This document shows, piece after piece, positions 2,860 through 53,126 of a stretch of DNA of 64,000 nt. The notes under the pieces are model-generated. The model searched no databases, was not told the origin of the DNA, and worked only from the letters and a program-made list of their open reading frames with translations. Positions within the stretch are counted from its first letter, which is position 1. The number at the start of each line of letters is the position of its first letter. The position numbers were made by a program, and so were the translations under genes. Source of the stretch: Patiria miniata (taxonomy: Eukaryota); NCBI RefSeq assembly GCF_015706575.1, contig NW_024037061.1, positions 915,897-979,896 of the forward strand, read 5' to 3'.

Positions 2860-3090
2860 ATGCAAATAACCCAGGCCAACGGTCCGGCCAACGGAGTGGT
2901 CCAGCAGCAGAGCCCCGCCGTAGGCTACGGGCGCCGAGCCGCCAAGACACCCCATGGAGTGCCCTGTCTGCTTGTAGTCTCCATCTTCCACCTCGTTCTC
3001 GGAGTACTGAGCGTTGGACTCGGCGTCGCAGCAATCATCCTTCAGTGTGCGTTTTATGAGTCCGGGTGGGCGATCTGGAGTGGAACCCTG
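2860..3090 (+). CDS. MS4A/CD20-like tetraspan membrane protein, exon 1 (ATG at 2860; N-terminus plus TM1)
   Basis: ATG at 2860 in an aaccATGc context. The open frame runs to a GTAAGT donor at 3091. The hydrophobic stretch IFHLVLGVLSVGLGVAAIIL resembles CD20 TM1 (LFHIALGGLL). The exon ends in phase 0. Confidence 0.72.
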
Positions 3091-3426
3091 GTAAGTTTTT
3101 ACACAATGAAATCGTGAAAAAGTTCAAGATTTTAGTGGTTTATGTGTGGCACTAAAAGACAGGCACAACGTGGCCGCAATACAGAGCCCCCAAAGAGACA
3201 TTTAATTTTTAATAATTCCTACACATGTATTAAACACAAATGTTGAGTGACCCTTTAGGTCTGTACCATTGTAGGGTTTTAAATGCCAGTCGAACCACAT
3301 AAGCTAACTTTCAAAAAATCAGAGTGTTCATGCTATCAAGTTAGATTTACCATTAATGTGATGGCCCTTTTTTACACCCATTTTTATGCACAGTTATTTA
3401 AATTATTCTTCCTTCCAATTATTTAG

Positions 3427-3489
3427 TTTTTCGCTGTGACTGGTATCCTGGGCATCATCGCTGCGTGCATTAACAGGAACAAATGCTTG
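3427..3489 (+). CDS. MS4A/CD20-like protein, exon 2 (TM2)
   Basis: Acceptor ag at 3425-3426 and donor GTAAGA at 3490. It encodes FFAVTGILGIIAACINRNKCL, which resembles CD20 IISGSLLAATEKNSRKCL. Phase is 0-0. Confidence 0.72.
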
Positions 3490-3894
3490 GTAAGAATTTC
3501 CTGAACATGTTTTTTTTTAACCTTTGCTTCGGCTTCTGCTTCGGCATTGCATCCTACTTCTGAATCACTGAGAGGCAAACTGAACGAAAATATTCCAACT
3601 TCTGTCTTCATATCAACCGATTGAATGTTCCTGAAGCATAACAGGCACAAAAATGCAGCTGGAGTTCCAGAAGTTGGGGGCCTAAAATGTCATTATAAGC
3701 CGAAGACGAAGCCAAAGCCAGTCGTTTCGAAAACGCTCATAGACTTTTATTCTAGATGACTTCATAATTACGAAGATATTGTTAATTAGTACACCCCCCC
3801 CCCCCATTTTATCTGCCTAGCTAGTCTCCTTCTAGATACGTTTCTCGCTGTCTGGTTTTATTGACTGTTACCTATATATCAACACTGGTTTAGG

Positions 3895-3990
3895 CTGGTG
3901 AGGGCCGGGCAGTGCTATCACATAGGATTACCCCAATGAGTGGGCTAAATCCGGCCCATTATTTAAACCAGATGCATGAAAAGACTTCCA
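3895..3990 (-). repeat. Copy of an interspersed element carrying the motif gggtaatcctatacaatagcactgccc
   Basis: Reverse complement of the motif shared with 7650-7760, 15670-15830 and 44060-45120. Confidence 0.45.
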
Positions 3991-4461
3991 GTGAATAGCC
4001 ATTTTAAATCAATCACAGTCTCTTGAGACACTTGGTGGCAGCAAACACATACCGGTTCATGTTTGCATCCATTGCAACCTCGTTGCCATGGTGTCGAGCA
4101 CTAAGCTAGCACCACTACTTTACTATTGGAAACGCGGTTAAAATTAAAGTAAGCCCTGGAGACGAGGTTGCATCCATTAATCTCCATTTTTTGTGTCATG
4201 TTTAAGCTGATGTGCGCATGTTCAAAATGGACGCCAAGAACAGAAAAAAAGGATCGTTGCCTGTTTGCTGCCACCAAGCGTCTCAAAAGTCTCCCATTGA
4301 GGAAAAAAAACTTCTCAAGCTTAGCGTCACCAGTCTACCTATGTAGTCTTGTGATAAAAGGGCAATGCAGACCGAGTGGATTTTTTGTAATCGATTTTTT
4401 GTAGATCTTTTGTAATCGGCCATTTAATCGTATAGTTTTAATTATATCATCTTAAATGCAG

Positions 4462-4626
4462 ATAATCGCCTTCTTGGTCATGTCCATCCTGTCTTCGGTC
4501 GTTGCTGGTCTACTGTTGCTTGAAGCAGCTATCGGGGCAAGCTTGGAGATTCATGATCCTAGTTGCACGAAACAGTATTACTGGCACGACGGTCATTACG
4601 ACAGTGAATACTGCGTCTCTTCCTGG
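4462..4626 (+). CDS. MS4A/CD20-like protein, exon 3 (TM3 plus extracellular loop with 2 Cys)
   Basis: Acceptor aaatgcag| and donor GTAGGC. It encodes IIAFLVMSILSSVVAGLLLLEAAIG followed by a Cys-containing loop (PSCTKQYYWHDGHYDSEYC), as in the CD20 TM3-TM4 loop. Phase is 0-0. Confidence 0.72.
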
Positions 4627-4789
4627 GTAGGCATAATCAATCTTTTTTTAAATAATATTATTACTTTTTCTAAAATTAGGAGGCGGGGGGATCAAAGGTA
4701 TTTCAAATAAGTTCGAGTTAATTACAAGTCAATTAATTTCACATCGCTTTTGAGTCTTTGTTAGAATATAGTATCAGATTGCCATCTGG

Positions 4790-5045
4790 CTTGAGACCGG
4801 ATGGTTTCAGATAACTTGTGTCAAGCTGACTTACGATTGACCTGCAATCGATTTGTGATTGACTTGTGATGGATTGTGATGGATTTTTGATTGACTTGTG
4901 ATTGCCGTGTGATTGACTTGTGATCGACGAGGAACTGACTTGTGATATTCTTGTAATCGTCTTGTGATCGACCTGTGTTTGACTTGTGATTGATTTGTCT
5001 TTACTTGTGGTCAACTTGTGATTACTTGAAACGATTGCTTGCAAC
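4790..5045. repeat. Minisatellite (tgacttgtgat)n, ~10-11-bp unit, in an intron of the MS4A-like gene
   Basis: Direct tandem periodicity. The same motif forms a larger array at 39230-39890. Confidence 0.8.
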
Positions 5046-5224
5046 TAAACGCATCCGTTTCTGACCAACTTCTCCCAATAGACCTTTAATATGCGTAGCA
5101 GCCATCTCAGAGAGCAATGCCTTTGTTTTACTGGGATGTGCATGAGTGAACCCTTTGTGCATTCATTGTTACTGAACTAAAATAACAAAAGTTGCCCTCT
5201 TCACTGTTCTTCTTCACTGACCAG

Positions 5225-5353
5225 CAATCTCGCCTTGCCGTGGACGTTGTGATCGCAGTGGTTGCTTTGGCTGACCTTATCTTTAGCATCGTGGGTTCGG
5301 CGCTCTGTTGCTACGGCCTGGCCAAATTCGTGCCCACCAACACCTCCGCTACG
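5225..5353 (+). CDS. MS4A/CD20-like protein, exon 4 (TM4)
   Basis: A pyrimidine-rich tract then cag| at 5222-5224, and donor GTATGT at 5354. It encodes VDVVIAVVALADLIFSIVGSALCCYGL, a fourth TM helix. Phase is 0-0. Confidence 0.68.
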
Positions 5354-5467
5354 GTATGTACAACGATAACTAAAGACACATAGAACCATTTGCATTTATC
5401 CCCAAAATAACCTCCCTAATTATGAGTAAGATTTGAGGCTTTGCATGGTGGAGATACTTAATAATGT

Positions 5468-5664
5468 AAGGTTTGCGGAAACACCATGTGCGAATAATTT
5501 CTCAACTAAGTGAATGATTCTGAAAAGAACCGAAGGTTCGGAAAAGAACCAGAGGTTCTGAAAAGAACCAGAGGTATATACCAGAGGTTTATACCTCTGG
5601 TTCTTTTAGAACCATTCTCTTAGTTGAGAAATTATTCGCACATGGTGTTTCCGCAAACCTTTCT
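5468..5664. mobile_element. Palindromic MITE-like element: 43-bp perfect TIRs flanking a central hairpin (gaaccagaggtatataccagaggtttatacctctggttc)
   Basis: aaggtttgcggaaacaccatgtgcgaataatttctcaactaag at 5468-5510 is the exact reverse complement of 5622-5664. Confidence 0.6.
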
Positions 5665-6132
5665 TCCTAATTATTATCAAGCTGACTTGGATTAAAGATC
5701 GTAGTGGTACTAAACTCCCAGTGAAATTATTCCGTCTGGCTTACTCTCATGTAGCAGAAACATGAAACGTAGGTGATTTATAACTATCAGTCAAATGACG
5801 GATTTTGTTGGGAAAAAATGTAAAGACGACACAGTGGTTCGTAATCCGGCTGTGCATGGTTTTTCACTGTTTTCGCGAAAAGTGTAATATCCACCGAGCA
5901 AAGGGTTAGATCTTGAACATTCTTGTTCGGTTTTCGAGTGGTGTTATTATCGAAAAAGAACAAAATGCATGCAAAGTAAATGATCCCATCAGCCTTTAAT
6001 ATCATAATCTATTCTGTAAAGAAGTAGGCCCTATGGTTCTCAAATGAACCACTGGTAAGGAGTGTTCCCCACGCTCTGGGCAGATTTAATAGTCTGTCCG
6101 TTCTTTGGAGTAAAGAGTTGGCAACACCTTTG

Positions 6133-6857
6133 CAGGCGCGGTTCTACGGGGGGCTAGGGGGGGCTGTAGCCCCCCCAAAATTTTGTCTAGCCCCCCAAAA
6201 ATAAATTCCGTAAAAAAAAAATTGCATTAGCAAAAAGAAGGATTGCATGTGATGTACATGTGAACGGTCACCCCCTAAAGAAGAAATAGCCGTGACAAGG
6301 GTGCATTAGTTAATATAGTTCAAGGGCGGATCCAGGAGGGGGGGGGGGGGGCAAAGGGGGCCATGGCCCCCCCCAAAAAAAAACCACCGAAACCAATTAT
6401 CTTTTTTTTTATGTGACATCGCAATTAAGGCAGGCAATGAGTACACCACCATCTTTTCCTCAAAAACAATTGGTTAAAGTGGTCAGAAATTGCCTCAGAT
6501 CGCACCACAGAGCATGTAGAATCCAAAAATTGTTCGGGGCCCTTCAGCGGGCCCCGAACCCCACGCCGTAATTTTTTGGACCCACTTTTTGGGGGGACGA
6601 AAATTTGTTTTGGCCCCCACAAAAAATTGTGTTCTGGATCCGCCCTTGCTATAGTGTGAATGATTTTAGGATTTTATTGGCGCTCCCCATTGAAAATATG
6701 GCATGAGCCCCCCCCCCCCCCCCCACCACCTATTGATTTTCGGAGGCCTAAGTGTCTGGAAAAAATAACCGGTCAACATTTCAGCACGCTTCCCTAAAAA
6801 AAATTCTGGATTCACCGTGCTAGCCCCCCAAAAATATTGGCTCTAGAACCGCGCCTG
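6133..6857. mobile_element. hAT-like non-autonomous DNA transposon / MITE (14-bp TIR caggcgcggttcta, perfect 8-bp TSD cacctttg)
   Basis: The TIRs are at 6133-6146 and 6844-6857. An identical 8-mer cacctttg lies at 6125-6132 and 6858-6865. The interior is full of poly-G/poly-C tracts and sub-palindromes. Confidence 0.7.
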
Positions 6858-7162
6858 CACCTTTGTCAATACCGAGAACATTTCTCGTCACCGCTTCTTG
6901 GTCACAGTGTCCAAAAATGTTGTTGTGATCAATGGACCATTGTGCAGTGAGGCGTGAGGGAAATTAAATGAAACTCGCAGGGGTTTAGGCCAAGGATTAG
7001 GGGTATCTGCACAACTACAAATATCAAAATTTACTGCGTTTTTTGCAGATCTTTAAAAAACATTTAGACGGACACTTTTTTGGGGACATACTGTGACAGA
7101 AGTTCATTTTATTTCAGTACCAAATCTTTGAAATTAAGAGGTTTTGGTTGTATTTTTTATAG

Positions 7163-7307
7163 GAGATGCAGGTTCGTTACGTACCTCAACAACAGCAGCT
7201 GCGGCAGACTGTTACCCAGTTTGTTCCCGTCATAAACACCCAGCAGCCGCGGCAACAGCAACCGTATCAGATGCAAGCCGCACCAGCAGCAGCAACTCCC
7301 GTGCAAG
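7163..7307 (+). CDS. MS4A/CD20-like protein, exon 5 (Gln-rich cytoplasmic tail segment)
   Basis: Acceptor ttttttatag| and donor CAAG|GTACGA. It is Q-rich (VPQQQQLRQTVTQ...). The phase 0 start matches exon 4, and the phase 1 end matches exon 6. I could not exclude intervening exons in 5354-7162. Confidence 0.5.
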
Positions 7308-7649
7308 GTACGAAGAAGCCCGCCGGTGTATTTTGTTGCAGCATACATCTGCACCATATCTTGCGATCCATAGTTCATTACACTATCCACTAAGCCACTG
7401 TGGCATTTCTTTGAAATGCTTTAATGTACATGCATGACGCGGTAGCAATGGTGTGACGTCATTGTTATTTTCTTATGAATAAACATCGAACTAGCTGAAT
7501 AATCATGATCCATTGACGATGGGTGCTGCAGATAAAAACACCGCAGCCCACCGATGCTCGGTTTGAGCGTCTAGGAACAAGACCAGGCGAGCCTAGCATA
7601 AAAGCTGGTCCCAGAGGGAAAAACATTATAGTCAATTGATTCACTTGAA

Positions 7650-7760
7650 TTCTTTCCATGTATCCGATCTACACATTGGGCCGAATTTAGCCCATTGTTT
7701 GACAATATGGGTAATACTATACGACAGCACTGCCCGGTTTACAATATATCAGGGAGTCAG
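7650..7760 (+). repeat. Copy of the gggtaatcctatacaatagcactgccc element
   Basis: Sequence similarity to 15670-15830 and 44060-44230. Confidence 0.45.
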
Positions 7761-8173
7761 TTATTCATTCAGTCAATGCGATAGGTACAAAGCAGAACAA
7801 GGCGAACTTGAAATTGGGATTTCCGATAAAAGTGAAATAATTCTACTGCCTGTCCTTAAATGGCAGGAAAGCTATCTGACGTAAAGTTAAAAAAAAAATT
7901 ACAGTGAGTTTTCATTGAATCATCGCCTGATTGACATGGTATAATAATTATGAGACCATATTTGGAACAACTGAGGGCGCTTTGGGACGCTATTGTGGGG
8001 TCTAGACAGACGAGAATCCGAGGTTAATGCCGTAAATGTGCATGTGTCGCTGCAGCCCAAAATTGGCAAGTTAAAAATTTCTAACTTTGAGATTTAAGAA
8101 AAGTTGCTTAGCCGACTTGTTAATACCGTACAGTTGGTGTTTTTATTTTCAAGATATCAATTTATTCGCGCAG

Positions 8174-8961
8174 GTGGATTCTTAGTGAGTTCCCCGTATG
8201 TTGGTCAAGGCCTGGTTCCCACCCAGCAGGTCGGAGTAGCTACCCAGCAGATAGGTCTTCCTCAACAGCACTCTGGCAGAAGCACCCCACTCCTTGATGT
8301 CTCCCAGCAGCATTCGGGACGCAGCACTCCTCAACTGGTTTATGTCCAACAGCCTGCCGTTGTTCCTGTTGTTGTGCCTCCTCAGCCGAATTTGGTTCCT
8401 CAACTGCAAGTTGGTCTTCAGAGAGAGCAGGCGATTTTCCAGCAATCGGGGGTTCCTATCCAACAGGGAGGTGGTTCCCAACAGGTAGAGGTTGGTTCCC
8501 AACAAGTAGGGATCGATTCGCAGCTAGTGGGCATTGGTTTCCAACAAGAAGGGGTTGGTTCCGAACAGGTTGGCATTGGTTCCCAACAAGTTGGCATTGG
8601 TTCTGAGCAAGGAGGGTTTGGTACCCAACAAGATGGCATTGGTTCCTATCAAGGATCGTTTGGTTCCCAACAGGTTGGCACTGGTTCTCAACAAGTTGGC
8701 ATTGGTTCAGATCAAGGAGTGTTTGGTTCTCCTCAGGTGGGGATTGGTTTCCATCCGGTAGGAATCGGTTCTCCGCAGGTTGGAATCGGTTCCCCACAGG
8801 AGATGGCTTCCCAGCCAGCAGGGATGGCTGCTGATCCGCCGGCCACGCTCCATGGGTCTGATGAGAGGGAGACGGTTCAAGATCAGGAGATTGGTGAACT
8901 GCAAATGGGAGGAGACGAGCAGTACCGGGACGACAAGCTACTCCTTGTCGACACAGATTAG
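8174..8961 (+). CDS. MS4A/CD20-like protein, terminal exon: Gln/Gly-rich tail with ~16 heptad repeats (GSQQVGI), stop TAG at 8959-8961
   Basis: Acceptor ttattcgcgcag|. Joining g from exon 5 to GT here gives Gly and continues the 285-aa ORF at 8104-8961. It contains a 21-bp tandem coding repeat at 8440-8810. Confidence 0.55.
8440..8810 (+). repeat. 21-bp coding minisatellite (ggttcccaacaagttggcatt)n, ~17 copies, inside the terminal exon
   Basis: Imperfect 21-nt periodicity is visible in the sequence. It translates to GSQQVGI-type heptads. Confidence 0.8.
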
Positions 8962-20429: not shown

Positions 20430-23400
20430 TAAAAACTTTTATTATCGGCGTAATTTATAGAGAAGTTAAACTTTATAGACAAACGGCGAGGTTTTGCAAT
20501 TGTGCATGTTATTAAGAAAAAGTTAGGGGGAAAAAATCTGAATTTTCTCATAATATTTTCAATTTTTTGGCCAAGATCGTGCAAATTTACATGTTTGAAT
20601 ATTGAAACATGGTTCTCATGCCTCAAAAAGCATTTCTGAGTATTTTGAAGAAAAGTCAATTTTTGGGCCAAATTCATCAAAAAAGTAAGGTTTACCCCTT
20701 ACATTTTTTCATAATTTTGATGAAAAATAAAATTTCTTCAAACTTGCTAAAAAGATGCACCAGAGTCTATAAAACACGGTCCTACTCTATATACTGGACA
20801 AATGTGACTTTCAAAGGAAAAAAGAATGCGTCAAAAATTGTGTGGAAAACGTCAAATTTATCTTTTTTCCCCTAATAATTTTATTATAACGTCCGAAATT
20901 TGAGGTAAAATAGGTCAAATATACGATATGCATTTCTGAGTAATTTGGAGAAAATTAATTTTTTGGCCAAAATTGACAAAAAAGTAAGGCTATAAACCCC
21001 TTACATTTTTTTTTCAAATTTGGCTGAAAAATTAAATTTCTTGAAACTTGCTGGGAAGATGCCTCGGGGTCCCTAGAACACGTTTCCACTCTTACATTGG
21101 ACAGATATGCCTTTCAAAAGGAAATATAACGTCGAAAATTTGAGGTAAAATTGGTCAAATTTATGAATTTTTTTCACAATAATGCCACAATTTCGGCCAT
21201 AATTTAGCCAATTTTGCCGGTCTGAATATTAAACCGTGTTCCCAAAGCCTTAATATGCATTGCTGAGTAGTTTGGAGAAAATTCATTTTTTGGCCAAAAT
21301 TGAAAAAAAAGTAAGGCTAACCCCTTACATTTTTTTTCAAATTTGGCTGAAAAATGAAATTTCTTGAAACTTGCTGGGAAGATGCCTCAGGGTCCCTAGA
21401 ACACGTTTCCACTCTTACATTGGACAGATATGCCTTTCAAAAGGAAATATAACGTCGAAAATTTGAGGTAAAATTGGTCAAATTTATGATTTTTTTTCCC
21501 AATAATGCCACAATTCCGGCCAAAATTTAGCCAATTTTGCCGGTCTAAATATTAAATCGTGATCCCAACACCTTATTATGCATTACTGAGTAGTTTGGAG
21601 AAAATTCATTTTTTGGCAAAAATTGAAAAAAAGTAAGGCTAACCCCTTACATTTTTTTCAAAGTTGGCTGAAAAATGAAATTTCTTGCAACTTGCTGGGA
21701 AGATGCATCAGGGTCCCTAGAACACGTTTCCACTCTTACATTGGACAGATATGCCTTTCAAAAGGAAATATAACGTCGAAAATTTGAGGTAAAATTGGTC
21801 AAATTTATGAATTTTTTAACCAATAATGCCACAATTTCGGCACAAATTTAGCCAATTTTGCCGGTCTGAATATTAAATCGTGATCCCAAAGCCTTTATAT
21901 GCATTTCTGAGTAGTTTGGAGAAAATTCATTTTTTGGCCAAAATTGAAAAAAAAGTAAGGCTAACCCCTTACATTTTTTTCAAATTTGGCTGAAAAATGA
22001 AATTTCTTGAAACTTGCTGGGAAGATGCCTCAGGGTCCCTAGAACACGTTTCCACTCTTACATTGGACAGATATGCCTTTCAAAAGGAAATATAACGTCC
22101 ACAATTTGAGGTAAAATTGGTCAAATTTATGATTTTTGTTCCCAATAATGCCACAATTTCAGCCGAAATTGAGCCAATTTTGCCGGTCTGAATATTAAAT
22201 CGTGATCCCAAAGCCTTAATATGCATTTCTGAGTAGTTTGGAGAAAATTCATTTTTTGGCCAAAATTGAAAAAAAAGTAAGGCTAACCCCTTACATTTTT
22301 TTCAAATTTGGCTGAAAAATGAAATTTCTTGAAACTTGCTGGGAAGATGCCTCAGGGTCCCTAGAACACGTTTCCACTCTTACATTGGACAGATATGCCT
22401 TTCAAAAGGAAATATAACGTCGAAAATTTGAGGTAAAATTGGTCAAATTTATGATTTTTGTTCCCAATAATGACACAATTTCAGCCAAAATTGAGCCAAT
22501 TTTGCCGGTCTGAATATTAAATCGTGATCCCAAAGCCTTAATATGCATTTCTGAGTAGTTTGGAAAAAATTCATTTTTTGGCCAAAATTGAAAAAAAAGT
22601 AAGGCTAACCCCTTACATTTTTTTCAAATTTGGCTGAAAAATGAAATTTCTTGAAACTTGCTTGGAAGAGGCCTCAGGGTCCCTAGAACACGTTTCCACT
22701 CTTACATTGGACAGATATGCCTTTCGAAAGGAAATTTAACGTCCACAATTTGAGGTAAAATTGGTCAAATTTATGATTTTTGTTCCCAATAATGCCACAA
22801 TTTCAGCCGAAATTGAGCCAATTTGCCGGTCTGAATATTAAATCGTGATACCAAAGCCTTTATATGCATTTCTGAGTAGTTTGGAGAAAATTCATTTTTT
22901 GGCCAAAATTGAAAAAAAAGGAAGGCTAACCCCTTACATTTTTTTCAAATTTGGCTGAAAAATGAAATTTCTTGAAACTTGCTGGGAAGATGCCTCAGGG
23001 TCCCTAGAACACGTTTCCACTCTTACATTGGACAGATATGCCTTTCAAAAGGAAATATAACGTCCACAATTTGAGGTAAAATTGGTCAAATTTATGATTT
23101 TTGTTCCCAATAATGCCACAATTTCAGCCGAAATTCAGCCAATTTTGCCGGTCTGAATATTAAATCGTGATCCCAAAGCCTTAATATGCATTTCTGAGTA
23201 GTTTGGAGAAAATTCATTTTTTGGCCAAAATTGAAAAAAAAGTAAGCCTAACCCCTTACATTTTTTTCAAATTTGGCTGAAAAATGAAATTTCTTGAAAC
23301 TTGCTGGGAAGATGCCTCAGGGTCCCTAGAACACGTTTCCACTCTTACATTGGACAGATATGCCTTTCAAAAGGAAATATAACGTCGAAAATTTGAGGTA

Positions 23401-26400
23401 AAATTGATCAAATTTATGATTTTTGTTCCCAATAATGACACAATTTCAGCCAAAATTGAGCCAATTTTGCCGGTCTGAATATTAAATCGTGATCCCAAAG
23501 CCTTAATATGCATTTCTGAGTAGTTTGGAAAAAATTCATTTTTTTGGCCAAAATTGAAAAAAAAGTAAGGCTAACCCCTTACATTTTTTTCAAATTTGGC
23601 TGAAAAATGAAATTTCTTGAAACTTGCTTGGAAGAGGCCTCAGGGTCCCTAGAACACGTTTCCACTCTTACATTGGACAGATATGCCTTTCAAAAGGAAA
23701 TATAACGTCGAAAATTTGAGGTAAAATTGGTCAAATTTATGAATTTTTTTCACAATAATGCCACAATTTCGGCCATAATTTAGCCAATTTTGCCGGTCTG
23801 AATATTAAACCGTGTTCCCAAAGCCTTAATATGCATTGCTGAGTAGTTTGGAGAAAATTCATTTTTTGGCCAAAATTGAAAAAAAAGTAAGGCTAACCCC
23901 TTACATTTTTTTTCAAATTTGGCTGAAAAATGAAATTTCTTGAAACTTGCTGGGAAGATGCCTCAGGGTCCCTAGAACACGTTTCCACTCTTACATTGGA
24001 CAGATATGCCTTTCAAAAGGAAATATAACGTCGAAAATTTGAGGTAAAATTGGTCAAATTTATGATTTTTTTTCCCAATAATGCCACAATTCCGGCCAAA
24101 ATTTAGCCAATTTTGCCGGTCTAAATATTAAATCGTGATCCCAACACCTTATTATGCATTACTGAGTAGTTTGGAGAAAATTCATTTTTTGGCAAAAATT
24201 GAAAAAAAGTAAGGGTAACCCCTTACATTTTTTTCAAAGTTGGCTGAAAAATGAAATTTCTTGCAACTTGCTGGGAAGATGCATCAGGGTCCCTAGAACA
24301 CGTTTCCACTCTTACATTGGACAGATATGCCTTTCAAAAGGAAATATAACGTCGAAAATTTGAGGTAAAATTGGTCAAATTTATGAATTTTTTAACCAAT
24401 AATGCCACAATTTCGGCACAAATTTAGCCAATTTTGCCGGTCTGAATATTAAATCGTGATCCCAAAGCCTTTATATGCATTTCTGAGTAGTTTGGAGAAA
24501 ATTCATTTTTTGGCCAAAATTGAAAAAAAAGTAAGGCTAACCCCTTACATTTTTTTCAAATTTGGCTGAAAAATGAAATTTCTTGAAACTTGCTGGGAAG
24601 ATGCCTCAGGGTCCCTAGAACACGTTTCCACTCTTACATTGGACAGATATGCCTTTCAAAAGGAAATATAACGTCCACAATTTGAGGTAAAATTGGTCAA
24701 ATTTATGATTTTTGTTCCCAATAATGCCACAATTTCAGCCGAAATTGAGCCAATTTTGCCGGTCTGAATATTAAATCGTGATCCCAAAGCCTTAATATGC
24801 ATTTCTGAGTAGTTTGGAGAAAATTCATTTTTTGGCCAAAATTGAAAAAAAAGTAAGGCTAACCCCTTACATTTTTTTCAAATTTGGCTGAAAAATGAAA
24901 TTTCTTGAAACTTGCTGGGAAGATGCCTCAGGGTCCCTAGAACACGTTTCCACTCTTACATTGGACAGATATGCCTTTCAAAAGGAAATATAACGTCGAA
25001 AATTTGAGGTAAAATTGATCAAATTTATGATTTTTGTTCCCAATAATGACACAATTTCAGCCAAAATTGAGCCAATTTTGCCGGTCTGAATATTAAATCG
25101 TGATCCCAAAGCCTTAATATGCATTTCTGAGTAGTTTGGAAAAAATTCATTTTTTGGCCAAAATTGAAAAAAAAGTAAGGCTAACCCCTTACATTTTTTT
25201 CAAATTTGGCTGAAAAATGAAATTTCTTGAAACTTGCTTGGAAGAGGCCTCAGGGTCCCTAGAACACGTTTCCACTCTTACATTGGACAGATATGCCTTT
25301 CGAAAGGAAATTTAACGTCCACAATTTGAGGTAAAATTGGTCAAATTTATGATTTTTGTTCCCAATAATGCCACAATTTCAGCCGAAATTGAGCCAATTT
25401 GCCGGTCTGAATATTAAATCGTGATACCAAAGACTTTATATGCATTTCTGAGTAGTTTGGAGAAAATTCATTTTTTGGCCAAAATTGAAAAAAAAGGAAG
25501 GCTAACCCCTTACATTTTTTTCAAATTTGGCTGAAAAATGAAATTTCTTGAAACTTGCTGGGAAGATGCCTCAGGGTCCCTAGAACACGTTTCCACTCTT
25601 ACATTGGACAGATATGCCTTTCAAAAGGAAATATAACGTCGAAAATTTGAGGTAAAATTGGTCAAATTTATGATTTTTGTTCCCAATAATGCCACAATTT
25701 CAGCCGAAATTCAGCCAATTTTGCCGGTCTGAATATTAAATCGTGATCCCAAAGCCTTAATATGCATTTCTGAGTAGTTTGGAGAAAATTCATTTTTTTG
25801 CCAAAATTGAAAAAAAAGTAAGCCTAACCCCTTACATTTTTTTCAAATTTGGCTGAAAAATGAAATTTCTTGAAACTTGCTGGGAAGATGCCTCAGGGTC
25901 CCTAGAACACGTTTCCACTCTTACATTGGACAGATATGCCTTTCAAAAGGAAATATAACGTCGAAAATTTGAGGTAAAATTGATCAAATTTATGATTTTT
26001 GTTCCCAATAATGACACAATTTCAGCCAAAATTGAGCCAATTTTGCCGGTCTGAATATTAAATCGTGATCCCAAAGCCTTAATATGCATTTCTGAGTAGT
26101 TTGGAAAAAATTCATTTTTTTGGCCAAAATTGAAAAAAAAGTAAGGCTAACCCCTTACATTTTTTTCAAATTTGGCTGAAAAATGAAATTTCTTGAAACT
26201 TGCTTGGAAGATGCCTCAGGGTCCCTAGAACACGTTTCCACTCTTACATTGGACAGATATGCCTTTCAAAAGGAAATATAACGTCGAAAATTTGAGGTAA
26301 AATTGATCAAATTTATGATTTTTGTTCCCAATAATGACACAATTTCAGCCAAAATTGAGCCAATTTTGCCGGTCTGAATATTAAATCGTGATCCCAAAGC

Positions 26401-29400
26401 CTTAATATGCATTTCTGAGTAGTTTGAAAAAAAATCATTTTTTTGGCCAAAATTGAAAAAAAAGTAAGGCTAACCCCTTACATTTTTTTCAAATTTGGCT
26501 GAAAAACGAAATTTCTTGAAACTTGCTTGGAAGAGGCCTCAGGGTCCCTCTTACATTGGACAGATATGCCTTTCAAAAGGAAATATAACGTCCACAATTT
26601 GAGGTAAAATTGGTCAAATTTATGATTTTTGTTCCCAATAAATTACATTGGACAGATATGCCTTTCAAAAGGAAATATAACGTCCACAATTTGAGGTAAA
26701 ATTGGTCAAATTTATGATTTTTGTTCCCAATAATGCCACAATTTTAGCCGAAATTTAGCCAATTTTGCCGGTCTGAATATTAAATCGTGATCCCAAAGCC
26801 TTTATATGCATTTCTGAGTAGTTTGGAGAAAATTCAATTTTTTGGCCAAAATTGAAAAAAAAATAAGGCTAACCCCTTACAATTTTTTCAAATTTGGCTG
26901 AAAAATGAAATTTCTTGAAACTTGCTGGGAAGATGCCTCAGGGTCCCTAGAACACGTTTCCACTCTTACATTGGACAGATATGCCTTTCAAAAGGAAATA
27001 TAACGTGGAAAATTTGAGGTAAAATTGATCAAATTTATGATTTTTGTTCCCAATAATGACACAATTTCAGCCAAAATTGAGCCAATTTTGCCGGTCTGAA
27101 TATTAAATCGTGATCCCAAAGCCTTAATATGCATTTCTGAGTAGTTTGGAGAAAATTCATTTTTTGGCCAAAATTGAAAAAAAAGTAAGGCTAACCCCTT
27201 ACATTTTTTTCAAATTTGGCTGAAAAATGAAATTTCTTGAAACTTGCTTGGAAGAGGCCTCAGGGTCCCTAGAACACGTTTCCACTCTTACATTGGACAG
27301 ATATGCCTTTCAAAAGGAAATATAACGTCCACAATTTGAGGTAAAATTGGTCAAATTTATGATTTTTGTTCCCAATAATGCCACAATTTCAGCCGAAATT
27401 GAGCCAATTTTGCCGGTCTGAATATTAAATCGTGATCCCAAAGCCTTTATATGCATTTCTGAGTAGTTTGGAGAAAATTCATTTTTTGGCCAAAATTGAA
27501 AAAAAAGTAAGGCTAACCCCTTACATATTTTTCAAATTTGGCTGAAAAATGAAATTTCTTGAAACTTGCTGGGAAGATGCCTCAGGGTCCCTAGAACACG
27601 TTTCCACTCTTACATTGGACAGATATGCCTTTCAAAAGGAAATATAACGTCCACAATTTGAGGTAAAATTGATCAAATTTATGATTTTTGTTCCCAATAA
27701 TGACACAATTTCAGCCAAAATTGAGCCAATTTTGCCGGTCTGAATATTAAATCGTGATCCCAAAGCCTTAATATGCATTGCTGAGTAGTTTGGAGAAAAT
27801 TCATTTTTTGGCCAAAATTGAAAAAAAAGTAAGGCCTTACATTTTTTTCAAATTTGGCTGAAAAATGAAATTTCTTGAAACTTGCTTGGAAGAGGCCTCA
27901 GGGTCCCTAGAACACGTTTCCACTCTTACATTGGACAGATATGCCTTTCAAAAGGAAATATAACGTCGAAAATTTGAGGTAAAATTGATCAAATTTATGA
28001 TTTTTGTTCCCAATAATGCCACAATTTCAGCCAAAATTGAGCCAATTTTGCCGGTCTGAATATTAAATCGTGATCCCAAAGCCTTAATATGCATTGCTGA
28101 GTAGTTTGGAGAAAATTCATTTTTTTGCCAAAATTGAAAAAAAAGTAAGGCTAACCCCTTACATTTTTTTCAAATTTGGCTGAAAAATGAAATTTCTTGA
28201 AACTTGCTTGGAAGATGCCTCAGGGTCCCTAGAACACGTTTCCACTCTTACATTGGACAGATATGCCTTTCAAAAGGAAATATAACGTCCACAATTTGAG
28301 GTAAAATTGGTCAAATTTATGATTTTTGTTCCCAATAATGCCACAATTTCAGCCGAAATTTAGCCAATTTTGCCGGTCTGAATATTAAATCGTGATCCCA
28401 AAGCCTTTATATGCATTTCTGAGTAGTTTGGAGAAAATTCATTTTTTGGCCAAAATTGAAAAAAAAGTAAGGCTAACCCCTTACATTTTTTTCAAATTTG
28501 GCTGAAAAATGAAATTTCTTGAAACTTGCTTGGAAGAGGCCTCAGGGTCCCTAGAACACGTTTCCACTCTTACATTGGACGGATATGCCTTTCAAAAGGA
28601 AATATAACGTCCACAATTTGAGATAAAATTGGTCAAATTTATGATTTTTGTTCCCAATAATGCCACAATTTCAGCCGAAATTGAGCCAATTTTGCCGGTC
28701 TGAATATTAAATCGTGATCCCAAAGCCTTTATATGCATTTCTGAGTAGTTTGGAGAAAATTCATTTTTTTGCCAAAATTGAAAAAAAAGTAAGGCTAACC
28801 CCTTACATTTTTTTCAAATTTGGCTGAAAAATGAAATTTCTTGAAACTTGCTTGGAAGATGCCTCAGGGTCCCTAGAACACGTTTCCTCTCTTACATTGG
28901 ACAGATATGCCTTTCAAAAGGAAATATAACGTCCACAATTTGAGGTAAAATTGGTCAAATTTATGATTTTTGTTCCCAATAATGCCACAATTTCAGCCGA
29001 AATTTAGCCACTTTTGCCGGTCTGAATATTAAATCGTGATCCCAAAGCCTTTATATGCATTTCTGAGTAGTTTGGAGAAAATTCATTTTTTGGCCAAAAT
29101 TGAAAAAAAAGTAAGGCTAACCCCTTACATTTTTTTCAAATTTGGCTGAAAAATGAAATTTCTTGAAACTTGCTGGGAAGATGCCTCAGGGTCCCTAGAT
29201 GACGTTTCCACTCTTACATTGGACAGATATGCCTTTCAAAAGGAAATATAACGTCGAAAATTTGAGGTAAAATTGATCAAATTTATGATTTTTGTTCCCA
29301 ATAATGCCACAATTTCAGCCAAAATTGAGCCAATTTTGCCGGTCTGAATATTAAATCGTGATCCCAAAGCCTTAATATGCATTTCTGAGTAGTTTGGAGA

Positions 29401-32400
29401 AAATTCATTTTTTTTGCCAAAAGTAAAGCTAACCCCTTACATTTTTTTCAAATTTGGCTGAAAAATGAAATTTCTTGAAACTTGCTTGGAAGATGCCTCA
29501 GGGTCCCTAGAACACGTTTCCACTCTTACATTGGACAGATATGCCTTTCAAAAGGAAATATAACGTCCACAATTTGAGGTAAAATTGGTCAAATTTATGA
29601 TTTTTGTTCCCAATAATGCCACAATTTCAGCCGAAATTTAGCCAATTTTGCCGGTCTGAATATTAAATCGTGATCCCAAAGCCTTTATATGCATTTCTGA
29701 GTAGTTTGGAGAAAATTCATTTTTTTGCCAAAATTGAAAAAAAAGTAAGGCTAACCCCTTACATTTTTTTCAAATTTGGCTGAAAAATGAAATTTCTTGA
29801 AACTTGCTTGGAAGATGCCTCAGGGTCCCTAGAACACGTTTCCTCTCTTACATTGGACAGATATGCCTTTCAAAAGGAAATATAACGTCCACAATTTGAG
29901 GTAAAATTGGTCAAATTTATGATTTTTGTTCCCAATAATGCCACAATTTCAGCCGAAATTTAGCCAATTTTGCCGGTCTGAATATTAAATCGTGATCCCA
30001 AAGCCTTTATATGCATTTCTGAGTAGTTTGGAGAAAATTCATTTTTTGGCCAAAATTGAAAAAAAAGTAAGGCTAACCCCTTACATTTTTTTCAAATTTG
30101 GCTGAAAAATGAAATTTCTTGAAACTTGCTTGGAAGAGGCCTCAGGGTCCCTAGAACACGTTTCCACTCTTACATTGGACGGATATGCCTTTCAAAAGGA
30201 AATATAACGTCCACAATTTGAGGTAAAATTGGTCAAATTTATGATTTTTGTTCCCAATAATGCCACAATTTCAGCCGAAATTGAGCCAATTTTGCCGGTC
30301 TGAATATTAAATCGTGATCCCAAAGCCTTTATATGCATTTCTGAGTAGTTTGGAGAAAATTCATTTTTTTGCCAAAATTGAAAAAAAAGTAAGGCTAACC
30401 CCTTACATTTTTTTCAAATTTGGCTGAAAAATGAAATTTCTTGAAACTTGCTGGGAAGAGGCCTCAGGGTCCCTAGAACACGTTTCCACTCTTACATTGG
30501 ACGGATATGCCTTTCAAAAGGAAATATAACGTCCACAATTTGAGGTAAAATTGGTCAAATTTATGATTTTTGTTCCCAATAATGCCACAATTTCAGCCGA
30601 AATTGAGCCAATTTTGCCGGTCTGAATATTAAATCGTGATCCCAAAGCCTTAATATGCATTTCTGAGTAGTTTGGAGAAAATTCATTTTTTGGCCAAAAT
30701 TGAAAAAAAAGTAAGGCTAACCCCTTACATTTTTTTCAAATTTGGCTGGAAAATGAAATTTCTTGAAACTTGCTTGGAAGAGGCCTCAGGGTCCCTAGAA
30801 CACGTTTCCACTCTTACATTGGACAGATATGCCTTTCAAAAGGAAATATAACGTCGAAAATTTGAGGTAAAATTGATCAAATTTATGATATTTGTTCCCA
30901 ATAATGCCACAATTTCAGCCGAAATTTAGCCAATTTTGCCGGTCTGAATATTAAATCGTGATCCCAAAGCCTTAATATGCATTTCTGAGTAGTTTGGAGA
31001 AGATTCATTTTTTGGCCAAAATTGAAAAAAAAGTAAGGCTAACCCCTTACATTTTTTTCAAATTTGGCTGAAAAATGAAATTTCTTGAAACTTGCTGTGA
31101 AGATGCCTCAGGGTCCCTAGATGACGTTTCCACTCTTACATTGGACAGATATGCCTTTCAAAAGGAAATATAACGTCGAAAATTTGAGGTAAAATTGATC
31201 AAATTCATGATTTTTTTTTCCCAATAATGCCACAATTTCAGCCAAAATTGAGCCAATTTTGCCGGTCTGAATATTAAATCGTGATCCCAAAGCCTTAATA
31301 TGCATTTCTGAGTAGTTTGGAGAAAATTCATTTTTTTTTGCCAAAAGTAAAGCTAACCCCTTACATTTTTTTCAAATTTGGCTGAAAAATGAAATTTCTT
31401 GAAACTTGCTGTGAAGATGCCTCAGGGTCCCTAGAACACGTTTCCACTCTTACATTGGACAGATATGCCTTTCAAAAGGAAATATAACGTCCACAATTTG
31501 AGGTAAAATTGGTCAAATTTATGAATTTTTTTCCAAATAATGCCATAATTTCGGCCAAAATTTAGCCAATTTTTCCGGTCTGAATATTAAATCGTGATCC
31601 CAAAGCCTTGATATGCATTGCTGAGCAGTTTGGAGAAAATTCATTTTTTGGCCAAAATTGAAAAACAAGTAAGGCTAACTCCTTACATTTTTTTCAAATT
31701 TGGCTGAAAAATGAAATTTCTTGAAACTTGCTTGGAAGATGCCTCAGGGTCCCTAGAACACGTTTCCACTCTTACATTGGACAGATACGCCTTTCAAAAG
31801 GAAATAATTTATAACGTCGCAAATTTGAGGTAAAATTGGTCAAATTTATGATTTTTTTACCAAATAATGCCACAATTTCGGCCAAAATTTAGCCAATTTT
31901 GCCGGTCTGAATATTAAATCGTGATCCCAAAGCCTCGATATGCATTGCTGAGTAGTTGGGAGAAAATTCATTTTTTTTGCCAAAAGTAAAGCTAACCCCT
32001 TACATTTTTTTCAAATTTGGCTGAAAAATGAAATTTCTTGAAACTTGCTGGGAAGATACCTCAGGGTCCCTAGAACACGTTTCCAATCTTACATTGGACA
32101 GATATGCTTTTCAAAAAGAAATATAACGTCGAAAATTTGAGGTAAAATAGGTCAAATTTATGATTTTTTTACGCATAATGCCACAATTTCGGCCAACATT
32201 TAGCCAATTTTGCCGGTCTGAATATTAAATCGTGATCCCTAAGCCTCGATATGCATTGCTGAGTAGTTGGGAGAAAATTCATTTTTTTTGCCAAAAGTAA
32301 AGCTAACCCCTTACATTTTTTTCAAATTTGGCTGAAAAATGAAATTTCTTGAAACCTGCTGGGAAGATGCATCAGGGTCCCTAGAACACGTTTCCACTCT

Positions 32401-32700
32401 TACATTGGACAGATATGCCTTATATTTTTTGTGTGAATTTTTTGATGAAAAATGTAATTTCTTCAAACTTGCTAAAAAGAAAGGAAAAACAGTCAAATGT
32501 ATTAATTGATTTCGCAATTATTTCAAAATGTAGGAGAAAAATTGCAAAATTTGCTTGTGTGAATATTGAATAAGGGTTATCAAGCCTTCAAAGACAATTC
32601 AAGCAATTTCGAGAAATACCAATTTTTTTTGGCCAAAATTCATCAAAAATGTATTTTCTTTGGCAGAAAATTGTATATCTTAAAACTCGGAAAATCGGAA
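20430..32700. repeat. Satellite array, 322-bp unit x ~37 (core 20880-32430, degenerate edges)
   Basis: Landmark ccccttacat recurs at 21321, 21643, 21965, 22287 ... (period 322). Copies are ~95% identical. One copy is truncated at ~26520-26640. Confidence 0.95.
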
Positions 32701-39229: not shown

Positions 39230-39890
39230 AATGACACTAGATGACTTATGATAGACTTGTGATGTCTTGTGAATGATTTGTGATGACATTTGACTGACTT
39301 TTGATGACTTGTGCTGGCTTGTGATTGACCTGTGATGACTTTTGATGTGATATGAAAACTTGAGTGATTAATGATGACTTGTGATGGATTTGTGATGACT
39401 TGTGATTTACGTGTGATATACTTGTGATGGCTTGTGGACTTGTGATTGACTTGTGATTGACCTGTGATTGACTTGTGATGACTTTTGATTTACTTGTGTG
39501 GACTTGTGATTGTTTGTGATGACTTGTGATGGACTTGTGATGGACAAGTGGTGGACAAGTGGTGGACTTGTGATGGACTTGTGATGGACTTGTGATGGAC
39601 TTGTGATGGACTTGTGATGGACATGTGATGGACTTGTGATGGACTTGTGATTGAGTTGTGATGGACTTGTGATTGACTTGTAATTGACTTGTAATTGACT
39701 TGTGATAACTTACGTTTATTTGTGATTGACTTGTGATTGACTTATGACTGACTTGTGATTGACCTGTGATTGACTTGTGATGGACTTGTGATCGACTTGT
39801 GATGACTTGTGATTGACTTGTAATTGACTTGTGATTGACTTGGGATTGACTTGGGATTGACTTGGGATTGACTTGAGCAACGACAAGTCA
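39230..39890. repeat. Minisatellite (tgacttgtgat / ggacttgtgat)n, ~60 copies, in a REV3L intron
   Basis: A direct 11-bp period is visible throughout. It is the same motif as 4790-5045. Confidence 0.9.
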
Positions 39891-51769: not shown

Positions 51770-51900
51770 GTTTTTTTTATAAAGTTGAACAAAGAAATTG
51801 ACTGGAGTAGGGTTTGAACCTGCGACCTCCAAATTGCCGGTCTGGTGCTCTGTCAACTGAGCTATCCAGCCCTATGTTGGAAGTTCCCCAATTTTGCTTT
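51770..51900 (-). mobile_element. Second copy of the tRNA-like mini-SINE (see 18812-18935) in a REV3L intron
   Basis: Minus strand reads GGCTGGATAGCTCAGTTGACAGAGCACCAGACCGGCAATTTGGAGGTCGCAGGTTCAAACCCTACTCCAGTC plus A-tail. The long ORF 51777-52820 reads through it. Confidence 0.5.
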
Positions 51901-51965
51901 TTCAAAGAATAAAACTTATAGGTCTTTCTTTTCATGTGTTTAGGTTTTCTGAGACGTATCAATAC

Positions 51966-52830
51966 CTCTTTTGGAGTGAAGAGCAACGTCTGTCTCATGC
52001 TGGATGAGGAAGGATGCCTTTCTCTGGATCCACCTGCTGAGGATGGATCCAAGGGTCGCTTCCATCCACTGATGGGGGTGAGTGGCAAACTGGCTTCCAC
52101 TGTCCCTGGGTCGACTCTCAGAGGGGTACTGTGCTGAGGCTGGCTGCTCCCCCTCCTGGATAATGGGTTAGTCCCCGGCGTGCTCAATCGGGGCTGAATG
52201 CTGTTCTTTTTCCAAGGGGTGGGGCTGGAAAACGGGGAGCCTCCTTGTGGGGTAGAGTCGGGTTTGGTTGAAGGTGTGCTGTTCTTTTGCCAGTGGGGTA
52301 AATATCCCTTTGGTGTTTGTATCTTAGAGGTGGATGGTTCGTCTTGCAATTGTTGGCAAGCCTGTGTCGCAGACGCTGCACTTTGCCTCCTATCCTGATT
52401 TGATTGTGAGACTTCTTCAGGGAAGCCTTGACTGGGGCCTTTAGAGCTGGAGGTCTTATTGGCAGGATCAAAACGAGTTACCTTTTCCTTGACTGGCTTT
52501 TCAGCTAGCTGTGTGCCATTGGTTTCTTTGTCACCATATTTCGCATCTTCAGGGCGCTTGTCGTTTTTATCCTCCAACCAAGTCCGAACCAACGCACAGC
52601 TCGGCGGAGATCTACAAGGCGTGATCACAGCATCAGCTTCCCCGAGCAATGCAGCTTTTAATCCAGGTTCGGGGGCCACATTGCTAGCCGACAGCAAGGG
52701 GTGTGGCTGCAGGGCCATCAGGTTGGCCTGCCATTGGCCGAGGCCAGTCTGGGAGAGTCTACTCTCTGCCTCGGGGAGGCGGGATGGGAGGTTGCTCTGT
52801 AGATGACCATCATTGTGCACACCAGGTTTA
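51966..52830 (-). CDS. REV3L: REV3L exon following the giant exon (KPGVHNDGHLQ ... ITPCRSPPSCALVRTWLEDK ... RQTLLFTPKE)
   Basis: Acceptor ttatctttttcgcag| and donor GAG|GTATTG. Phases are consistent on both sides. ITPCRSPPSCALVRTWLEDK resembles vertebrate IMPCKCAPSRQLVQVWLQAK. An internal alternative donor (AAG|GTAACT at 52482) has the same phase. The ORF seen downstream of 51966 is read-through into a SINE. Confidence 0.6.
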
Positions 52831-53126
52831 CTGCGAAAAAGATAACATTAAACCTTGTTATTTTTCTGGAGCGGAGAAATTAATGACTGTTTTAACATAT
52901 TGTGGTGTTTCATCACAAAGACCTGTTGCTGTTTCATATGAGGAAGAAACACATTAAGCACCTGCACTTCATTGTAATACATTATATTTATTCGCTGATC
53001 ACTCCTGCGAACTGTCCAGTGCTTAGGGCGGTTTTGGGCAGAACAGGGAGTATCAGGCAGTGCGCTGTGGGGCAGTGCAGGGACCAATAGGTTAAGAGCT
53101 CAAAGTAAGAAACACTTGACAATTAC

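Follow-up and report, generated by a model that had tools for sequence, protein, structure and literature searches.

A CD20/MS4A-like tetraspan gene of the sea star Patiria miniata encodes a long glutamine-rich tail that includes a 21-bp coding minisatellite

We analysed a stretch of 64,000 nucleotides from the bat star, Patiria miniata (RefSeq assembly GCF_015706575.1, contig NW_024037061.1, positions 915,897-979,896 of the forward strand; hereafter the window), in which a gene for a CD20/MS4A-like protein with four transmembrane helices (TM1-TM4) begins 2.9 kb from the edge. The original prediction, made from the letters alone, had described six exons here, and all of its exon boundaries proved exact, each with an AG acceptor or GT donor. 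Joining the exons gave a coding sequence of 1521 nt with a sole stop codon, TAG, at 8959-8961 and a product of 506 residues; introns 1-4 are in phase 0 and intron 5 is in phase 1. The product is identical over its full length to the NCBI entry 'uncharacterized protein LOC119730623 [Patiria miniata]' (P0001), exon 1 matching that protein at 100% by tblastn, and it contains the strings quoted earlier for TM1 and TM2 as well as the proposed Cys pair (C133 and C149). These and the comparisons below indicate that the locus is a real, single six-exon protein-coding gene, predicted by NCBI and uncharacterised (Table 1). The surrounding region is ordinary eukaryotic DNA: its G+C content is about 41%, and satellites, transposon-like inserts and spliced genes are present. 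The gene occurs only once in the 64-kb window, and a search with 159 family proteins revealed no other CD20-like gene in it outside 2860-8961.

Table 1. Exons and coding features of the CD20/MS4A-like gene in the window
Feature	Position	Strand	Residues	Content
Exon 1	2860-3090	+	1-77	Start ATG, predicted cytosolic N-terminal segment, TM1, short outer loop 1, start of TM2; DNA conserved with Acanthaster
Exon 2	3427-3489	+	78-98	Remainder of TM2 and inner loop NRNK; DNA conserved with Acanthaster
Exon 3	4462-4626	+		TM3 and outer loop 2 with Cys133 (4564-4566) and Cys149 (4612-4614)
Exon 4	5225-5353	+	154-196	TM4 and first predicted cytosolic residues; AlphaFold helix 153-187
Exon 5	7163-7307	+	197-245	Start of the Q-rich tail; opens with the post-TM4 motif MQVRYVPQ (7166-7189)
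Exon 6	8174-8961	+	245-506	Remaining tail and TAG stop; flanks of the array conserved with Acanthaster
Duplicated motif QQHSGRSTP-x5-QQHSGRSTP	8263-8331	+	275-297	Invariant in Patiria and both Acanthaster copies
21-bp coding minisatellite	8473-8808	+	345-456	16 in-register heptads, GSQQVGI
Acidic C-terminal box DEQYRDDKLLL	8914-8946	+		Acanthaster form DEQYxDDKQLL; holds [DE]xxxL[LI] at D497-L502 (8929-8946)

The assignment of the protein to the CD20/MS4A family was upheld by a hidden Markov model, by a profile of relatives and by fold comparison. The Pfam model CD20 (PF04103), whose use as a check the original prediction had suggested, aligned with residues 42-182 over positions 4-156 of its 156 and scored 39.1 bits (E=1e-9), well past the gathering cut-off of 27.9; residues 1-196 alone scored 41.1 bits. 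An exhaustive search of 1.8 billion representative sequences yielded 268 relatives at E<=0.001. As a single query to PDB sequences (phmmer), the domain found at best only FcεRIβ, at E=0.49; the profile of 108 relatives returned FcεRIβ at 8.5e-19, CD20 at 3.4e-14 and sarcospan at 1.8e-7. With residues 31-204 as query, a word-indexed homologue search gave no match, missing even the protein itself, and since such searches gave either nothing or just three known proteins, the family is visible only through the exhaustive representative search. The close relatives for which a species is named all come from invertebrate deuterostomes or an annelid, and within the CD20/MS4A-like tetraspans the protein is best placed in the branch of the invertebrate deuterostomes.

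AlphaFold modelling of residues 1-208 on the 108-relative alignment gave a mean predicted local distance difference test (pLDDT) score of 83 and a predicted TM-score (pTM) of 0.77, with helices at 34-60, 70-91, 96-129 and 153-187 and a small hairpin within outer loop 2. Five of the top six Foldseek matches in the PDB were FcεRIβ or CD20 and one was sarcospan, FcεRIβ reaching a target-normalised TM-score of 0.74-0.75. Cys133 and Cys149 are invariant in Acanthaster and were found in 78 and 74 of the 108 relatives, respectively; their spacing of 16 equals that of the CD20 disulfide C167-C183. Counting Lys and Arg along the sequence gave seven on the N-terminus, the TM2-TM3 loop and the post-TM4 segment against one on the outer loops, a distribution that fits the MS4A orientation. 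The N- and C-termini would accordingly both be cytosolic and the Cys pair would lie in outer loop 2. It is nearly certain that the protein has the MS4A tetraspan fold, followed by a long C-terminal extension of conserved sequence and biased composition.

Following exon 4, the tail comprises 310 residues (197-506), with 20% Q, 15% G, 12% V, 8% P and 8% S. The original prediction had proposed an in-frame, Q/G-rich tail of about 300 residues with about 16 heptads, and this stands: the product equals the NCBI model, and Acanthaster orthologues and a paralogue show the same architecture. Between 8472 and about 8800, Tandem Repeats Finder detected a period of 21 bp and, with a higher score, a higher-order period of 63 bp; in-frame cutting gave exactly 16 heptads with the consensus GSQQVGI. 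Of the 15 units tabulated (residues 352-456), 14 retain G1, 13 retain Q4 and 12 retain G6. Allowing up to three mismatches, the whole window contains six occurrences of the consensus 21-mer, all of them in exon 6, against none expected. Within the array the annotated frame is the only open one on the + strand, along with one antisense frame. The units differ from one another most often at third codon positions (0.48 per site, compared with 0.20 and 0.31), which indicates that the array evolves as coding sequence. With 21-bp units that stay in frame and a copy number that differs between Patiria and Acanthaster, it has the marks of a coding minisatellite. The earlier description of exon 6 as such a minisatellite was right about the array and too broad for the exon, only 336 of whose 788 nt (43%) are repetitive. 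The first 300 nt, or 100 residues, are unique and well conserved, including the duplicated QQHSGRSTP box, and the final 150 nt specify the 50 residues of an acidic C-terminal end, ...GGDEQYRDDKLLLVDTD.

The array is composed of 24% V/I/F and 27% G with 7% charged residues and some Pro, which is not a typical Q/N prion-like composition. A coiled coil of the heptads was considered and ruled out by the 27% Gly, the presence of Pro and the lack of any predicted helix past residue 187; the period of seven is a property of the DNA repeat. Searches of the tail in Pfam (to E=10) and in PDB sequences gave no match. Modelled in full on a three-sequence alignment, the protein reached a pLDDT of 35 overall, with values of 24-39 and no secondary structure from residue 190 on, and the tail is predicted to be cytosolic and intrinsically disordered.

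Comparison with Acanthaster planci, in which at least six CD20-like genes lie on the same strand within about 130 kb of DF978614.1, revealed the same gene structure. The orthologue LOC110984657 (470 residues; 52% identity by BLAST, 61% by MAFFT) has the same six exons with the same boundaries, as does the second tandem copy, and both contain a heptad array of at least 8-11 units. When the Patiria and Acanthaster loci were aligned by blastn, the six exons alone were conserved within the gene body, exon 5 being the best conserved of them with 80.5% DNA identity. At the protein level the identity is 72% in exon 5, 67% in exon 6 before the array, 60% in the transmembrane core and 51% in the array, which is gapped at 49 and 35 of its 112 positions against the two Acanthaster copies, where the arrays are shorter. 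By this measure the tail outside the array is conserved between the two sea stars no less than the membrane core, indicating that the tail is not junk. A shorter paralogue from the Acanthaster cluster, LOC110984661 (P0005, 286 residues), has introns before '...VMVQYVPQQ' and before its last exon at positions matching those of Patiria; this last exon encodes 42 residues, compared with 262 in Patiria, and ends in 'HDDKEGLLH'. The shared introns imply that the linkage of exons 4, 5 and 6 predates the duplications and that the added length arose inside the last exon.

Some further observations were made on the Acanthaster cluster. A 30-bp block at 1849-1878 of the window has a 90% identical counterpart at L001 17582-17611, which lies some 500 bp ahead of exon 1 in the second copy. 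This block is the sole conserved non-coding piece found and could be a promoter or 5'-untranslated element. This second tandem copy is annotated as an 'ataxin-2 homolog' (P0003, 379 residues), a name that reflects only its Q-rich tail, and the model omits exons 1 and 2, which lie upstream (L001, 18096-18334 and 20081-20146, on DF978614.1); a change of frame towards the end of exon 1 is apparently the cause. In L002 (DF978614.1, 961088-989119), two neighbouring CD20-like genes have exons that are repeated with an offset of 9076 bp and an amino acid identity of 96-100% (tblastn), through either a very recent tandem duplication or an error of assembly.

Among the 108 aligned relatives, which include sea urchins, brittle stars, hemichordates and amphioxus, the position of Y202 behind TM4 is Tyr in 78 and Phe in 11, and that of V200 is Val or Ile in 66. 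With this V-x-Y motif present behind TM4 in about 70-80% of the relatives, exon 5 encodes a family-wide, membrane-adjacent element. The tails of 135 relatives that could be aligned through TM4 have a median length of 96 residues; 63 reach at least 100 residues, 25 at least 150, 13 at least 200 and three at least 300. Measured from the end of TM4, the Patiria tail of 320 residues ranks third in this set and first among the Q-rich tails. The longest tails are mostly Q/P-rich, two being exceptions. Every long-tailed relative that can be named comes from Ambulacraria or amphioxus (Lytechinus, Diadema, Strongylocentrotus, Amphiura, Asterias, Ptychodera, Saccoglossus and Branchiostoma), and almost every one bears the label 'uncharacterized'. 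Several carry unrelated tandem repeats of their own, such as the GQMQPxPQ octads of Asterias P0011. The tail had been called unusual, which holds beside typical vertebrate MS4A proteins, with their 200-300 residues in all, but not beside its own relatives in Ambulacraria and amphioxus, where long tails are common and mostly Q/P-rich. Judged on these alignments, the Patiria tail is a long example of a family-typical feature.

Two short motifs are enriched in these tails. PPxY occurs in 57 of 119 tails, against 13.7 expected from per-tail shuffles (maximum 23), and lies within the last 40 residues in 47 of them (5.6 expected); [DE]xxxL[LI] falls within the last 16 residues in 10 of the 119 relatives (0.2 expected). 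Patiria, with DDKLLL, and Acanthaster, with DDKQLL, belong to this dileucine group. Two kinds of unusual architecture were also seen among the relatives. P0131 (394 residues, from a marine metatranscriptome or metagenome) combines a CD20-like domain, an N/Q-rich repeat tail and, at the C-terminus, a Cys-rich segment, CDCCNPCNLMCFYAFYCTPC..., which by eye resembles a PLAC8-type domain and would be a candidate unusual domain combination. P0004 (Owenia), P0007/P0153 (Ptychodera) and P0046 each have two complete CD20-like domains in tandem on one polypeptide, and tandem-domain MS4A proteins have been described in chicken, opossum and platypus (PMC2826416).

How such a protein might work can be proposed from these features. 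By analogy with FcεRIβ, CD20, MS4A4A and sarcospan, the membrane domain would most likely be a small oligomerising scaffold or receptor partner, not an enzyme or transporter. The tail would then be a string of short docking motifs, namely the V-x-Y box, the two RSTP boxes and the acidic dileucine DDKLLL, kept apart by flexible Q/P/G-rich sequence and setting the trafficking or signalling of the protein. The RSTP boxes are candidate sites of proline-directed phosphorylation, and DDKLLL would be an acidic dileucine of the type that AP clathrin adaptors recognise when they sort proteins to endosomes or lysosomes. The heptad array may serve as an expandable, weakly constrained, flexible spacer between the motifs, which could have grown by slippage or unequal exchange of units of 21 bp, in part of 63 bp, and have expanded about twofold in Patiria compared with Acanthaster. 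We favour this division into docking motifs and spacer because the non-repeat tail (72% and 67%) is better conserved than the core (60%), and the array (51%) is both the least conserved and heavily gapped. That the protein is a membrane scaffold with a disordered cytosolic tail of conserved docking or sorting motifs, in which the array acts as spacer, seems to us probable on balance. The trafficking and spacer roles themselves are what we infer, and the specific mechanism built on them is put forward tentatively, at somewhat less than an even chance.

Several points weigh against this reading. The NCBI model of LOC119730623 is a prediction too. The relatives share kinship, so that the shuffle tests overstate their independence, and the dileucine and S/T-P motifs are short enough to occur by chance in one protein, their support being conservation and enrichment in the family. 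The low confidence of the full-length AlphaFold model, computed with three sequences only, is weak evidence of disorder. Finally, G1, Q4, G6 and the hydrophobic residue at position 7 are kept in 12-14 of the 15 tabulated units, maybe more constraint than a plain spacer needs.

An alternative, in line with the condensate-forming protein suggested in the original prediction, is that the array is the functional core of the tail, a 'sticker and spacer' domain of V/I/F in G/S/Q that self-associates and clusters the tetraspan into membrane-attached condensates or a gel. The regular hydrophobic positions 5 and 7 and the near-invariant G1, Q4 and G6 over the 15 units would suit such a domain, as would the mere 7% of charged residues and the retention of the periodicity since the species split, with at least 8-11 units in both Acanthaster copies. 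However, conservation within the protein is lowest in the array, at 51% identity and with between a third and nearly half of the positions gapped, and its copy number varies among species and paralogues; LOC110984661 dispenses with it altogether and keeps the flanking motifs. The 24% V/I/F and 27% G are also unlike classical Q/N prion-like domains. We consider a self-associating array unlikely and prefer the spacer. A broader proposal is that a long Q/P-rich tail with a PPxY or dileucine end was an ancestral deuterostome trait of MS4A-like proteins, lost in typical vertebrates, that such proteins originally served as adaptors in endolysosomal trafficking and had Nedd4-type ligases or AP complexes for partners, and that the sea-star lineage studied here elaborated the tail into a membrane-anchored, multivalent low-complexity domain, its non-repeat parts being more strongly constrained than the membrane core. 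This extrapolation is speculative, and we would expect it to fail more readily than to hold.

Less probable still is that the long-tailed protein is a minor product and that the main isoform stops shortly after exon 4, through retention of intron 4 or an unseen terminal exon. Read-through of the exon-4 donor would add only nine residues (VCTTITKDT) before a stop, AATAAA and ATTAAA hexamers are present in intron 4, and NCBI lists isoforms for the Acanthaster paralogue LOC110984661. Against this, intron 4 has no block conserved with Acanthaster and is full of inverted-repeat transposon-like inserts, the V-x-Y motif that normally follows TM4 is encoded by exon 5 alone, and exon 5 is the most conserved exon. 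A conserved alternative last exon in intron 4 (5354-7162), for which the original prediction had advised a search, was not found by blastn against the Acanthaster locus. We regard a predominant short isoform as very unlikely, though a minor one may exist.

The inserts in intron 4 were characterised further. The element at 5468-5661 resembles a miniature inverted-repeat transposable element (MITE), with 58-nt arms that are 95% complementary and 78 nt apart, and encloses a 22-nt palindrome and 19-bp tandem repeats. At about 6133-6860, reading of the sequence revealed two nested elements rich in C/G runs, each with short terminal inverted repeats, the outer pair being GCAGGCGCGGTTCTA...TAGAACCGCGCCTGC and the inner pair, at about 6325-6648, CAAGGGCGGATCCAG...CTGGATCCGCCCTTG. 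The nested elements make up much of the excess length of intron 4 over its Acanthaster counterpart.

The original prediction had also allowed that two genes had been joined by mistake, in which case an MS4A gene of four exons would be followed by a separate Q-rich gene with its start codon at the in-frame ATG at 7166. The Met (M198) two codons into exon 5 and the 1.8-kb length of intron 4 could be cited for two genes, but this is hardly credible given the identical join, across a 0.5-kb intron, in two Acanthaster paralogues and again in the shorter LOC110984661, the V-x-Y motif and DDKxxLL terminus on single polypeptides of sea urchins, brittle stars and amphioxus, full-length single-sequence and three-sequence-profile searches that gave just the three known proteins, and DNA conservation confined to the exons. 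Five observations in all indicate that the locus is one gene.

Compared with FcεRIβ (MS4A2) and CD20 (MS4A1), the Patiria protein shares PF04103, the four-helix bundle, a short outer loop 1 and a longer loop 2 with a Cys pair, as well as cytosolic termini (presumed for Patiria) and a C-terminal tail with signalling or sorting motifs, which in FcεRIβ is an immunoreceptor tyrosine-based activation motif (ITAM). Tandem clusters of the genes are found both in vertebrates and in Acanthaster. It differs in having only about 14% identity in the structure-based alignment and probably no one-to-one orthology, and whereas vertebrate tails measure tens of residues, that of Patiria has 310, rich in Q/G/V/P, with the 16-unit array and without an ITAM. 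Human and bovine MS4A14 are described as having exceptionally long C-termini, the human protein being an 'otherwise typical' MS4A whose C-terminal region is over twice as long as usual (PMC2826416); human MS4A14 was absent among the closest 150 relatives with checkable species.

The CD20-like proteins of Ambulacraria and amphioxus, such as Lytechinus LOC121424793 (473 residues), a Diadema protein (408), the Branchiostoma 'MS4A4A' (369) and Acanthaster LOC110984657 (470), share the CD20 domain, the post-TM4 V-x-Y motif, Q/P-rich tails of 180-300 residues and an end of the type D-D-x-x-L-[LI]. Among them the Patiria protein has the longest Q-rich tail, owing to a heptad array about twice as long, while others have unrelated repeats, or PPxY and not dileucine. 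LAPTM4 and LAPTM5 are four-helix lysosomal tetraspans whose PPxY and sorting motifs, in cytosolic C-terminal tails, send the proteins and their partners to the late endosome and the lysosome. They belong to another family (Pfam Mtp) and offer a functional analogy only, the Patiria protein having a dileucine and no PPxY.

The gene alone is of little weight: it had been predicted before, is uncharacterised and belongs to a large family. A literature search on the locus name and on MS4A in echinoderms found nothing specific and no mention of the locus. A phylogenetic study of 2010 reported that invertebrates have no MS4A-like genes (PMC2826416); our profile and fold results contradict it and firmly tie the invertebrate CD20-like proteins to vertebrate MS4A and sarcospan. 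Later work on Ciona and amphioxus classes such genes as MS4A, and the link made here is corroboration, no discovery. The biochemical roles of MS4A-like proteins are debated. The common Q/P-rich tails of the invertebrate proteins, with their PPxY or dileucine ends, give a testable hint that trafficking is a core MS4A-like function. The gene is also a clean case of a coding minisatellite that expands within a strongly conserved, putatively disordered tail, and it could be a natural experiment on the spacer length that such tails tolerate.

Elsewhere in the window, an 11.5-kb block at 20926-32421 consists of 35.6 copies of a 322-bp AT-rich satellite matching at about 90% and coincides with a low-GC stretch. 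The 11-bp unit TGACTTGTGAT forms an array of 18.6 copies in intron 3 of the gene (4827-5028) and another of 59.6 copies 34 kb downstream (39242-39875); the two look like a dispersed microsatellite-bearing element. On the minus strand, an open reading frame (ORF) for 1961 residues rich in Ser, Thr and Pro occupies 53123-59008, with a 347-residue ORF downstream on the same strand at 51777-52820. Neither had a match in Pfam, and the longer one had none among PDB sequences. The 1961-residue ORF probably forms one giant exon in the gene for a large disordered protein, and its region has the highest G+C of the window (0.47-0.50) together with a strong AT skew.

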